From an uncultured Candidatus Saccharibacteria bacterium (GTDB taxonomy: Bacteria; Patescibacteriota; Minisyncoccia; UBA6257; 2-01-FULL-56-20), in contig CAYIOP010000005.1 of NCBI GenBank assembly GCA_964365185.1, positions 1 to 54,769 of the forward strand: DNA of 54,769 nt. The letters are read 5' to 3'. Each line of letters begins with the position of its first letter. Position 1 is the stretch's first letter. The notes below the pieces were generated by a model. The model was given only the letters and a program-made list of their open reading frames with translations, ran no database searches and had not been told where the DNA came from. A program made the position numbers and the translations under genes. Below, piece by piece: positions 52,217 through 54,769 of this stretch.

Positions 52217-52639
52217 ATGAATCCAGAGGAAATTAAATTAAGTCCTAAAAGCGAAGAATTTAATGCCAATATCGAAAAAATGAAAGGCAAGATATGGATT
52301 GAGATGAGCCGGAATGATCATGAAAGTATTGGAAGTTCTTTTGGAAAAGAGTTGGATGGGGATACAGGTTTAGATAAAAATATGAAATCACTTGAAGAGA
52401 GAATGACAGAGAGTCCAGATAAATCCGTCGGAAAATTAATGACCGATGAAGAAATTGATGAGTATCTAAACCATTTTGTTTCAGGTCTAAAAAGCGCGGA
52501 GGAAGATTTAAAGAATTCTAAAAACCGAGACGCATCTTTAAAAACACTAGAGGAGGTCAAGATAGAATACAGGAAGATTTTGGATTATTTAAGGAAGATT
52601 GGAAAATTGCCAAAAGCATACGAGGCGCGGGAAAACTGA
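52217..52639 (+). CDS. Hypothetical protein
   Basis: E/K-rich helical ORF; TATGAT just before ATG. Confidence 0.65.
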   Translation: MNPEEIKLSPKSEEFNANIEKMKGKIWIEMSRNDHESIGSSFGKELDGDTGLDKNMKSLEERMTESPDKSVGKLMTDEEIDEYLNHFVSGLKSAEEDLKNSKNRDASLKTLEEVKIEYRKILDYLRKIGKLPKAYEAREN

Positions 52640-52665
52640 TTTTCCTTGTGGAGAGAATTTTTACG

Positions 52666-52878
52666 CTATTTAAAATTCTCTTCTTGAAGATGGGATTGCC
52701 TTAAAATTGATTTAAAAGTTCCAAACGGGATTTCTTTTCGATTGGCTGGAATGATGACTGTCAAAGTGGTAATCCCAAATTTCCTAAATTTAACATGACT
52801 GCCTTTTTGCGAGATAAAAACGAAGCCGCTTTTTTCTAGGATTCTTCTTGTTTTGTCGGATGAATAAAGTTTAGGCAT
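52666..52878 (-). CDS. hicA: HicA-family toxin
   Basis: GFVFISQKGSHVKF..IPFGTFKSILRQ. Confidence 0.9.
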   Translation of the reverse strand: MPKLYSSDKTRRILEKSGFVFISQKGSHVKFRKFGITTLTVIIPANRKEIPFGTFKSILRQSHLQEENFK

Positions 52879-53089
52879 ACTGCAACCGTTCAGAGGAAAC
52901 AGTTGGCTTTTCTATTTTGGGCAGATTTTTAGGAGAAAAATCTTCAAAGTAAAGTTCAAGAGCTTCGCGGAGGTTTTTTAGAGATTCGGCGCGGGTTTTG
53001 CCGAAACTAGAAATATCGACATTCAAACACTGGGAAACAAAATATTTACCTTCTTTCCAAGTGATGATTTTAAGATTGGTTTTAGCCAT
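52871..53089 (-). CDS. hicB: HicB-family antitoxin (short form)
   Basis: SSFGKTRAESLKNLREALELYFED; 8-nt overlap with hicA. Confidence 0.88.
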   Translation of the reverse strand: MAKTNLKIITWKEGKYFVSQCLNVDISSFGKTRAESLKNLREALELYFEDFSPKNLPKIEKPTVSSERLQYA

Positions 53090-53165
53090 AACTTAATTCT
53101 ATATTATATTATTGGATTAGTTTTATCAAATAATGCTAGTGAGGCCGGAAAATATGGGGTTTTGG

Positions 53166-53225
53166 TCCCTCACCCTTTTATTAAAGGGTGAGGGATTGAC
53201 AGATTAGGAGTTTGTATGCTATAAT
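53166..53225 (+). promoter_or_regulatory. Consensus sigma70 promoter of the DGR target, preceded by a 13-bp hairpin
   Basis: TCCCTCACCCTTT-TATT-AAAGGGTGAGGGA (53166-53195); TTGACA 53196-53201; 18-nt spacer ending TGC; TATAAT 53220-53225. Confidence 0.8.
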
Positions 53226-53266
53226 TAAAGAGATAGATAGTTCTTTTGTATTAAAATACTTACTGG

Positions 53267-53385
53267 TTTTTGCCGTGGCACTTAGAGCATCTATTTAATC
53301 AGGTACTTTAAATGCTGCGGCAAAAAAGAGACCAAACAGAACGCAATGACGCGTTTGTTTAAATCCCTGCGGCAAAGGAGTTTTT
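53267..53385 (+). promoter_or_regulatory. Structured 5' leader of the DGR target with alternative SD-occluding pairing
   Basis: TTTGCCGTGG can pair with CTGCGGCAAA at 53315-53324 or at 53367-53376, which runs into the AAGGAG SD. Confidence 0.55.
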
Positions 53386-54012
53386 ATGTCTGGCATTTCA
53401 GTGGATCAGAGATTCGCGATGCTTGCGAAAATCGGCGAAAACATCGATTGGAACTCGCTCACAGTTGAGCAAGTTCAAGTTGGTGTCGTGGATGCGCAGA
53501 GAGCTGGAAAAGAAGCAACGGCTTTTATCCGAAATGGGTTTCGGGTTCAGGTCGGCGATTTCTTCTTGAACACCGGAGAACTCACAATCCCAATTCCGGC
53601 GCTTGCTCGTTTGAGCCTTGAGGAAATCCAGAAGAGATTTCGCGACATCAAAGGGATAGAGCGTGATACCTCGCCGACAGAAGTCGTAACCCTAAACCTC
53701 GCCACCATTCTTCGTTCTGACGAAGAAAGGGTGAATGGAGAGGAATACGAGCGACGGATAGCGTCGAAACTTGAAATTCTTTTTGGTCCCCAACAAGCTA
53801 TTTGGCTGATGGAGCACCAGGACGAATTCCCAGCTCTCATGGCCCTTCTTGGAAAAATCTATATTGATTTTTCAGGAATGGTCGTGGTGGGCGAGGATGG
53901 TGGCCGGGACGTGTTTTGTCTCAATCGGCTCGGCAAGCGTTGGGACCTCGGTAGGGATTGGGTTAGCGGTGACTTCGGTCGGGGTGGCCGTCTCGCTCTC
54001 TCTAGTAAGTAG
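53386..54012 (+). CDS. DGR target protein with C-terminal variable region (putative CLec-like)
   Basis: 3' end is homologous to the TR with adenine-specific differences; ends W..DF..RLALSSK. Confidence 0.9.
   Translation: MSGISVDQRFAMLAKIGENIDWNSLTVEQVQVGVVDAQRAGKEATAFIRNGFRVQVGDFFLNTGELTIPIPALARLSLEEIQKRFRDIKGIERDTSPTEVVTLNLATILRSDEERVNGEEYERRIASKLEILFGPQQAIWLMEHQDEFPALMALLGKIYIDFSGMVVVGEDGGRDVFCLNRLGKRWDLGRDWVSGDFGRGGRLALSSK
53882..54008 (+). repeat. DGR variable repeat (VR)
   Basis: 127-nt ungapped match to 54328-54454 with 18 mismatches, 17 opposite TR adenines. Confidence 0.95.
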
Positions 54013-54327
54013 CAGTACTTTGATTCTTGTGGCTTTGGGTTTTCGCCCTTAGTCACTTGGACCCTTGGGATATTTTCCTTAGGGTCTTTTTTTTGATACT
54101 TTAATATTGGATAGTAGATTTTACGTCCGCGGCTACGGTTTCGGGCGGTCGAATTCCGCGATAGCATCAGTCAGAATAAGAGCGGGTACGCTTTCTCTTA
54201 GCGCGCGGTGCTATTCGCTTTATATTGCTGCTACTTAGTATGAAGATCTAGGGAATTAAAGATTCCGAATAAGATTCAACTCCAAGAATATTTCAAGGAG
54301 TGGTGGTTTAGGCGGGTTTTCATACAT

Positions 54328-54454
54328 TCGTGGTGGACGAGGATGGTAACCGGAACGTGTTTTATCTCAATCAGAACGGTAAGCGTTGGGACCTCAATAG
54401 GAATTGGGTTAGCAATGACTTCAATCGGAATGGCCGTCTCGCTCTCTCTAGTAA
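54328..54454 (+). ncRNA. DGR template repeat (TR)
   Basis: AAY-rich copy of the VR reading VVDEDGNRNVFYLNQNGKRWDLNRNWVSNDFNRNGRLALSS. Confidence 0.93.
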
Positions 54455-54483
54455 CTGGCGGCAATAAAGGAAATGTTCGGCGG

Positions 54484-54769
54484 CTAATTGTGGCTTGTGA
54501 TTTGTCTAAGCCAACCGCCGAGCATTCTTCCGACTTCATTTAATTGCTCGGAAATTAAAATGTATTTTTTGGTGTCGAACGATTTAATTTCCCAAGCGAT
54601 TTGAAGAAAAAATTTAGCAAGATCAATTTTTGTGGCCGCGCGTTCTATGTATGGTATTTTTTTGTTTTTTTCCAGGAAGCTGGCTATAAATATCGCTTCA
54701 ATGGCATCGATTAGCGTAGAATCTATTTTCGCGCCGAGCGTGTAGCGGGCGTCTCTTAAGATATGGGGC
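54484..54769 (-). CDS. avd: Avd-like four-helix-bundle DGR accessory protein (5' end outside the window)
   Basis: Manual translation from 54768: PHILRDARYTLGAKID..KIDLAKFFLQIAWEIK..KKY..NEVGRMLGGWLRQITSHN-stop. Confidence 0.88.
   Translation of the reverse strand, partial: PHILRDARYTLGAKIDSTLIDAIEAIFIASFLEKNKKIPYIERAATKIDLAKFFLQIAWEIKSFDTKKYILISEQLNEVGRMLGGWLRQITSHN

Follow-up and report, generated by a model that had tools for sequence, protein, structure and literature searches.

The 54,769-nt stretch of DNA analysed here (hereafter the window) is the whole of contig CAYIOP010000005.1 (C5) of assembly GCA_964365185.1, obtained from an uncultured Candidatus Saccharibacteria bacterium; the assembly comprises 832 kb in 14 contigs and is rated 98.9% complete. 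The right-hand end of the window is a diversity-generating retroelement (DGR). Very likely it is a recently active member of the type found in the candidate phyla radiation (CPR; Patescibacteria), consisting of a target gene with a C-terminal variable repeat (VR), a terminator, a unit of leader, template repeat (TR) and hairpin, an avd gene on the minus strand, and a reverse transcriptase (RT) on contig C3. The leader between the target gene and the TR seems to be a previously undescribed RNA element. The coordinates of all features are collected in Table 1.

The differences between VR and TR are confined almost entirely to adenines of the TR. At an offset of 446 nt the two repeats form an ungapped 127-nt alignment with 18 mismatches, and 17 of these fall on TR adenines (15 A>G, one A>C and one A>T). 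The remaining mismatch, T54380/C53934, is synonymous in the target frame (GGT>GGC). Recomputation thus returned the same alignment, the same 17 changed adenines among the 32 of the TR and the same single non-A difference as the original prediction. By chance, 17 or more of 18 mismatches would hit A with a probability of 9e-10 (binomial) or 2e-11 (hypergeometric), and divergence between TR and VR outside adenines amounts to 1 in 95 positions. At the protein level, five of the nine TR Asn codons have become Gly in the target, two Asp and one Leu, which bears out the predicted recoding for eight of nine codons; the codon at 53923 is unchanged. Single-adenine changes account for D169G, Y178C and Q181R. 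A TR adenine is present in 21 VR codons, 12 of which differ between TR and VR. The final 24 nt of the repeats (53985-54008) are identical, as had been noticed, and weaker similarity extends for about 16 nt beyond. A remote VR, for which a search had been advised, did not turn up: scanning the whole 832-kb assembly with only non-A positions scored gave no further VR for the TR of the window.

The same bias recurs among relatives, where 637 of the 656 mismatches in 38 related cassettes lie on a TR adenine. The substitution spectrum of these cassettes is broader than that of the window: A>G makes up 356 of 637 changes (56%) against 15 of 17 in the window (p 0.005), and the others are A>T (30%) and A>C (14%). 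An ordinary direct repeat, produced by partial duplication of a gene and later point mutations without any retroelement, could be imagined from the fact that the TR can be read as a 45-codon open reading frame (ORF) fragment homologous to the C-terminus of the target. We give this explanation negligible weight, as 17 of 18 differences hit one base of one copy (p ~1e-9), the bias is repeated throughout the related cassettes, and an RT and an Avd adjoin the repeats in all relatives with sufficient sequence.

Table 1. Features of the DGR at the end of the window and of its flanks, in order of position; pairing partners and supporting observations are given in the last column.
Feature	Position	Strand	Basis or remark
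Promoter-like site upstream of target, TTGACA-18-TATAAT with TG	53196..53225	+	Consensus scan, 12/12; pattern match only
Target (variable protein) gene, 208 aa	53386..54012	+	ORF; three-helix part 1-50 and putative C-type-lectin-like domain ~63-208
VR	53882..54008	+	Codons 166-208 of target; differs at TR-A sites in X4 contig
IMH-like VR 3' flank (IMH, initiation of mutagenic homing)	54006..54024	+	54006-54015 is the exact reverse complement of leader 54228-54237
Terminator-like hairpin and T8 after target gene	54063..54094	+	
Weak promoter-like site before leader RNA	54093..54120	+	9/12; GATAYAAT-like box conserved there in leader alignment
Conserved structured leader RNA, ten helices	54109..54325	+	Covariation; ~220 nt
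Leader helices H1-H3	54109-54157	+	
Leader helices H4-H6	54169-54207	+	
Leader strand a and conserved TAC-TT(A/G) motif, proposed primer strand	54223..54237	+	Pairs with 54456-54466
Leader helix H7 (12 pairs)	54238-54249 with 54314-54325	+	Encloses H8-H10
TR	54328..54454	+	32 adenines
Strand a' (IMH*-like TR 3' flank)	54456..54466	+	Pairs with leader strand a
Hairpin after TR	54472..54526	+	6 sequences; 12-pair stem, few compensatory changes
avd, C-terminal 94 codons	54484..54769	-	ORF and profile matches; first 31 codons on contig C3

The RT and the beginning of avd lie across a contig join. The last 12 nt of C5 recur at the start of the reverse-complemented C3, and this is the only overlap of at least 10 nt between the end of C5 and any contig start in either orientation. 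Across the join, the avd frame runs 31 codons further to an ATG, for a total of 125 codons, and the RT falls on the plus strand, followed by a DNA polymerase I-like gene; the gene order is therefore target(+), TR(+), avd(-), RT(+). The RT is the sole full match in the assembly (PF00078, 89.6 bits; minus strand, 42 nt from the C3 end). Its frame is open over 353 codons and contains the motifs LGNLTSQ and YADD, the SQ of the former being a hallmark of DGR enzymes. Among solved structures, the RT is closest to chain 8ub7_A ("Reverse transcriptase", E 1.4e-40), which we take to be the Bordetella phage enzyme, and the best group II intron RT scores 6e-20. The adjacent Avd with the motif EVGRMLGGW, which had been recognised by eye, is an ORF on the minus strand (54484-54768) cut by the contig end; its 94 residues match PF22296 (E 2.1e-9, 38.2 bits) and NF033474 (E 6.6e-16, 58.5 bits) and gave 0 matches in the Protein Data Bank (PDB) at E <= 0.01.

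Related loci share this arrangement. The order target(+)-TR(+)-avd(-)-RT(+) recurs in five of the 13 genome loci in which the target has a homologue, and in these five, 23/23, 19/21, 21/21, 22/22 and 20/20 TR/VR mismatches are at TR adenines. Among 80 metagenome loci of RT relatives, avd and RT are on opposite strands in 69 and share a strand in none. The gene order of the related loci supports the C5/C3 join. Adenine-confined TR/VR differences, a DGR-type RT near the TR and an Avd are all found at this locus, and TR-(avd)-RT with avd on the reverse strand is the arrangement known as architecture B3. The 24 identical nt followed by partly similar flanks resemble IMH and IMH* ends. Two further observations concern the same genes. 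At the junction (~54860-54870 in joined coordinates), the start codons of avd and RT overlap on opposite strands, with a CATG palindrome beside G9, and in most related loci the stop-to-stop frames of the two genes overlap too. In one relative (L010:5205-6514), the RT is split over three reading frames and is either decayed or mis-assembled.

The DGR is probably active, as judged from assembled contigs of public runs rather than reads; stretches of the window that the contigs of runs X4 and X5 leave uncovered were not interpreted. Run X1, perhaps the sample from which the window came, agrees with it at every position of 53557-54433. A contig of run X4, from another study, shows 21 differences from the window over 53731-54029. 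Fourteen VR differences are among those listed, all 14 at TR-adenine positions and with C, T, G and A as outcomes, and three listed differences upstream of the VR are common to run X2 and are ordinary strain differences. No difference from the window is seen in further X4 contigs, which cover 54063-54247 and 54372-54554 and take in the last 83 nt of the TR, so X4 appears to hold a near-identical strain with the same template and a different VR. A contig of run X5 over 53349-53552 was left out; its 27 differences point to a relative rather than the window strain.

A fossil element, formerly active, with a VR that is now fixed and with RT and Avd out of use, would also be in line with some of these observations: the comparison covers contigs and not reads, runs X1 and X2 show either the VR of the window or unresolved differences, the A>G skew could be that of an old VR shaped by selection, and the RT of the relative L010 is broken into three frames. 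Such a state is very unlikely here. The RT of the window DGR is open with its catalytic motifs intact, avd is open across the join, non-A divergence between TR and VR is minimal, and a near-identical strain from another study carries a VR that differs at TR-adenine sites, with C, T and A among the outcomes. Recent activity thus remains the preferred reading, and the DGR signature recognised in the original prediction now extends to the RT of the adjoining contig, the conserved gene order of relatives and the divergent VR of X4. Mismatches not specific to adenine, or a genome with an invariant VR and no RT, had been named as observations that would speak against it; what we found is 17 of 18 mismatches on adenine, an RT on C3 and a different VR in X4.

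The 230 nt between the target terminator and the TR are conserved far above the level of the proteins and carry the signature of a structured RNA. RNAalifold on six sequences gave compensatory changes in 27 of 73 pairs. With nhmmer the element was found in 62 loci, and across 40 full-length copies 40 of the 51 predicted pairs show compensatory changes. In the leader, 97.1% of the alignment cells are paired, compared to 74.5% in shuffled alignments and 39-48% with slid partners, and doubly changed cells number 520 against 152 in shuffles; none of 500 shuffles reaches any of these measures. The leader region is unlikely to be coding, as it varies by one-base insertions and deletions and lacks 60 nt in L012. 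Rfam 15 contains no match to the leader, the RT-10 and other RT-n motifs included (positions 52600-54769 at E <= 1; 10 related loci at E <= 0.1). Rows for suhB (E 0.023), antizyme (E 0.87) and glutamine (E 0.047) were rejected as chance-level and lie away from the leader. No description of an RNA element upstream of the TR was found in the literature, in an incomplete search with key papers outside it.

The leader belongs to the RT/Avd/TR core of the element and not to the target, as it precedes 47 of the 50 related RT loci with at least 800 nt of upstream sequence, while the target family of the window occurs in only 8 of the 41 related RT loci with at least 1500 nt upstream. Of 151 genomes sampled from the phylum, 26 match a covariance model built for the 3' domain of the leader; an RT match (E <= 1e-20) is present in 25 of these 26, compared to 44 of 151 overall. 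The genome with a leader match and no RT match at that threshold is G145. In another genome (G076), the leader (L112) is not on the contig that carries the RT and has neither avd nor RT next to it. The leaders of G145 and G076 may be solo units or reflect assembly gaps.

A long-range helix joins the leader to the 3' flank of the TR. Positions 54223-54231, just 5' of the (C/A)TACTTGG motif, pair with 54458-54466, and in the alignment of 41 cassettes all nine pairs show compensatory changes, with 88.5% of cells paired compared to 38-51% for slid partners; the helix was derived from the same sequences on which it was scored, which somewhat favours it. A comparison of duplex energies was only moderately discriminating, with -8.6 kcal/mol for cognate and -6.0 kcal/mol for non-cognate duplexes and 16 of 40 cognates in the best 10%. 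Helix H7 ends 2 nt before the first TR/VR-homologous base and strand a' starts 2 nt after the last one; the TR is therefore exactly bracketed, with H7 on the 5' side and a:a' on the 3' side. Beyond the a' strand follows a hairpin (54472-54526), the 5' arm of which is non-coding and the 3' arm of which consists of the Avd codons RMLGG in the subgroup of the window. In most relatives and in the two other cassettes of the genome described below, a GC-rich hairpin followed by a U-run comes after the TR (read by eye). Alignment of the post-TR region of 58 loci gave no consensus structure, with inconsistent anchoring on avd frames. The bracketed TR and the hairpin or U-run behind it make the leader-TR unit look like a self-contained transcript.

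The 3' flanks of VR and TR differ in their complementarity to the leader. In the same register, the VR flank of the window is complementary to the leader motif over 10 nt without interruption and the TR flank over 6 nt, and GTAGCAG (54009-54015) is the exact complement of 54228-54234. Across 42 cassettes, the reverse complement of the leader hexamer is present in the VR flank of 29 and in the TR flank of none, and the complement of the leader 5-mer in 36 VR flanks and one TR flank (CAAGT-type in contrast to AAC-T). The match follows the leader through its variants: TATTTG, TACTCG and TACTTA are met by CAAATA, CGAGT(A) and TAAGTA, respectively, in the VR flank.

Two more leader-TR units were found elsewhere in the genome with the leader model, on contigs C14 and C4. 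The C14 cassette (L097:3-1590, minus strand) consists of a 209-aa target, a leader, a TR and an oppositely oriented avd of 122 aa, followed by a second RT that the contig end cuts off after 55 codons; the remainder of this RT is absent from the assembly. The TR/VR mismatches of the cassette are at A in 21 of 22 cases, and its Avd paralogue passes the PF22296 cut-off (49.5 vs 40 bits). Two small ORFs that look toxin-antitoxin-like by eye (L097:1787-2235) flank this cassette. The C4 cassette (C4:8167-9340; L095:628-1790) lies beside a miaA-like gene and is made up of a 207-aa target, a leader, a TR and an intrinsic terminator, and all 12 of its TR/VR mismatches are at TR adenines. No avd or RT is present on the whole 56-kb contig, and the C4 cassette would have to be served in trans. 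The three targets of the genome are only marginally similar to one another, and none belongs to a Pfam family or has a credible NCBIfam match. Among 19 loci of other genomes, L112 appears to be another solo unit.

These features can be assembled into a working scheme for the element. The leader (~220 nt), the 127-nt TR and the 3' hairpin would be transcribed together as a non-coding unit of their own. If the Bordetella phage element is taken as the model, RT and Avd would copy the TR RNA into cDNA and misread adenines, and the cDNA would then replace the VR, changing as many as 21 codons for the terminal strands of a putative lectin-like domain. The leader may play the role of the downstream "spacer" of the Bordetella phage BPP-1, supplying a primer strand and, at the TR 5' edge, a stop helix. 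Candidate priming nucleotides are the near-invariant A54233 of the TAC motif or the adjacent C, which faces a C-C mismatch. The VR flank could be recognised through its complementarity to the leader primer strand, either with RNA-linked cDNA annealing to the target through its DNA and RNA parts, or with copying that continues past the branch into the leader and restores the flank. In its general form, our tentative proposal, held with less than even confidence, is that the DGR RNA of CPR (B3) elements is a circular permutation of that of BPP-1, that the leader-TR unit is a portable cartridge usable by RT-Avd in trans, and that VR is told from TR by an IMH that is the reverse complement of the primer strand.

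The leader could instead stand outside the reverse-transcription machinery and serve, at the 5' end of the TR transcript, in regulation or stabilisation, for instance as a sensor or as protection against RNase, with the complementarity of the VR flank as a by-product of IMH/IMH* homology. Priming from the leader is indeed deduced from covariation and position, a' and the VR flank are homologous so that some common complementarity is expected, and the duplex energies of strand a are just modestly beyond those of shuffled controls. We nevertheless consider a purely regulatory leader unlikely. H7 and strand a' lie 2 nt from the TR/VR homology on either side, and the topology is that of a template:primer duplex beside a stop duplex, as the Handa preprint (10.1101/2023.10.23.563531) depicts it in its sections on the BPP-1 RNA. 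The hexamer complement separates VR from TR flanks (29 vs 0 of 42) and co-varies with the leader variants, and the leader travels with the RT-less TR-VR cassette on contig C4.

The target protein belongs to a family without a name in Pfam. The predicted 208-aa ORF was recovered, together with 81 homologues at E <= 0.001, nearly all of 190-240 aa and all named "hypothetical protein"; their labels are those of Patescibacteria (Paceibacterota, Ryan-, Lipton- and Brennerbacteria). The family has a conserved body, and the last ~40 residues are hypervariable where the TR encodes Asn. No Pfam family and nothing credible in NCBIfam was found for the target, the profile of the 81 homologues gave 0 matches to PDB sequences at E <= 10, and a search of the ESM Atlas returned unnamed clusters only. 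AlphaFold2 on the alignment of 81 sequences gave a confident model (pLDDT 94.1) with three helices (6-49) followed by an alpha/beta domain, and the N-terminus described earlier as unrecognised is this three-helix part. In an exhaustive VIA search with residues 63-208, ~40 of the best 50 rows are C-type-lectin-like, Link, intimin/invasin or FGE/EgtB-type proteins (judged from titles), and TvpA (2y3c), a DGR variable protein, is among the rows. With reservations, residues 63-208 are thus read as a divergent C-type-lectin (CLec) fold; the fold prediction that had been suggested yielded a confident model with mostly CLec-like neighbours, but at low similarity scores, which are given below.

The target is probably cytoplasmic and may bind a variable ligand. 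A simple hydropathy check showed no N-terminal hydrophobic segment, and the AlphaFold2 model buries the sole hydrophobic stretch (150-168) as a helix and a strand. The earlier statement that signal peptide and transmembrane (TM) segment are missing therefore stands, in agreement with what Roux et al. 2021 (PMC8144416) report for CPR targets, whereas its cytoplasmic location is kept as a deduction. Flanking genes are not conserved among 14 loci, so the context gives no functional hint. Display or release without a classical signal peptide, for host-cell attachment or surface defence, is the competing view; most characterised DGR targets work in cell-cell, virus-cell or cell-particle contact, and the truly non-membrane nature of CPR targets is stated as open in the discussion of these proteins in Roux et al. 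2021 (PMC8144416). We rate a surface role as somewhat unlikely, given the hydropathy of the target and the burial of its only hydrophobic stretch, the lack of an N-terminal hydrophobic segment in all three targets of the genome (207-209 aa), and the absence of a conserved neighbour gene pointing to an export partner. A cytoplasmic target thus remains our preferred location. Homologues also occur apart from any cassette: eight of the 13 genome loci (L004, L006-L009, L011, L013 and L014) encode a target homologue with no TR, avd or RT within ~4 kb. One of these (L008) has kept a leader-like element with no recognisable TR, the protein of another (P0039 of L006) has an Asn-rich, TR-like C-terminal end, and L013 carries an Acidobacteriota label.

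The region upstream of the target contains several other elements. A HicA toxin gene (PF07927, E 1.5e-14) with an overlapping small partner ORF occupies 52666-53089 on the minus strand. At 53155-53200 lies a hairpin (GGTCCCTCACCC / GGGTGAGGGA) where contigs of X1 and X4 end or diverge (loose ends at 53162, 53198 and 53199) and where the summed depth climbs, which suggests a short repeat common to other loci or organisms. Two direct copies of CTGCGGCAAA, ~54 nt apart, lie in the target's 5' untranslated region of ~160 nt (53314-53377), just before the ribosome-binding site.

Several points weigh against our reading of the locus as a recently active CPR-type DGR, or against parts of it. The RT is on another contig, and the join consists of a 12-nt overlap, frame continuity and synteny, with no spanning read. 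The Avd matches are under the curated cut-offs (38.2 vs 40 bits for PF22296; 58.5 vs 80 bits for NF033474), probably because the window holds only 94 of the 125 residues. The A>G excess of the window may stem from selection or a small number of events. For activity, up to four further X4 differences in the VR-covering contig are unplaced, X4 coverage excludes the first 44 nt of the TR (54328-54371), and heterogeneity within a sample lies outside a comparison of contigs. The putative roles of the leader in priming, stopping and target recognition are drawn from covariation and position, and the duplex energies of strand a have a mean z of -1.7 relative to shuffled sequences (13 of 40 below -2), a modest effect. 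For the CLec fold, Foldseek with the target model found nothing in the PDB at E <= 0.001 (E >= 0.37), the best VIA score is a weak Z of 5.1, and TvpA reaches a weak Z of 3.6 over 132 aligned residues.

As a DGR, the element is one more of a class catalogued in thousands, in the lineage where DGRs are most enriched. A small (0.83 Mb), nearly complete genome that keeps three hypervariable proteins of ~208 aa nonetheless makes a sizeable investment in them. The added value of the locus is the covarying RNA around the TR and the pairing rule that separates the VR flank from the TR flank. To our knowledge, how the cDNA is aimed at the VR and what underlies the difference between IMH and IMH* are unresolved even in the Bordetella phage model. 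Were the leader scheme true, either the annealing or the copy-through route would be a concrete answer to how a DGR finds its target, and the leader and flank sequences allow direct mutational tests of VR targeting.

Compared with known systems, the window DGR is closest to those of the CPR. The sections of Wu et al. 2018 (PMC5758913) on CPR elements describe architecture B3 as TR-(avd)-RT and assign 90% of their CPR DGR set to it, and according to Roux et al. 2021 (PMC8144416) the DGRs of the CPR form a separate clade (clade 2), with targets that typically are without TM segments or recognisable domains and among which new CLec variants are expected. The window agrees with these accounts in gene order, strands, phylum labels and groundwater habitat, and in a short target with a C-terminal VR and without TM segment or known domain. 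With supplementary tables outside the comparison, no essential difference was seen, the target family of the window being unnamed in Pfam. The shared architecture and clade traits thus make the window DGR a typical CPR member. DGR variable proteins with C-type lectin folds, such as TvpA (2y3c) and an archaeal variable protein (PMC5006420), compare with the target in a C-terminal VR that occupies the closing strands of a CLec-like domain, putative in the case of the target. The target shows no sequence similarity to any solved chain and only weak structural similarity, and its N-terminal three-helix part is unplaced.

The DGR of BPP-1 (mtd-avd-TR-brt) shares with the window adenine-specific transfer, an Avd, an RT of which 8ub7_A is the closest solved relative, a target with a (here putative) lectin fold, and identical TR/VR 3' ends followed by partly similar IMH/IMH*-like flanks. 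In contrast to BPP-1, the window has its avd in reverse orientation, placed after the TR and ahead of the RT; a short transcription unit appears devoted to the TR, the element resides in a cell and not in a phage, and the target has no tail-fibre context. The conserved RNA is also upstream of the TR in the window and not downstream. According to the RNA sections of the Handa preprint (10.1101/2023.10.23.563531), the BPP-1 DGR RNA consists of the avd 3' end, the TR and a 140-nt spacer; a primer duplex at the TR 3' end and a "stop" duplex at the TR 5' edge are both formed with the downstream spacer, and an Avd-binding hairpin follows the TR. The survey reported there covered 40 nt upstream and 100 nt downstream of TRs, and the RT-10 motif of Weinberg 2017 (PMC5737381) lies in the BPP-1-type spacer downstream of the TR. 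The RNA of the window has no sequence or covariance-model match to any Rfam family, RT-10 included. As in the BPP-1 RNA so described, its TR appears looped out between two duplexes, with a hairpin just downstream, whereas the proposed primer strand and both strands of the 5'-edge helix are upstream of the TR, in an apparently permuted arrangement.

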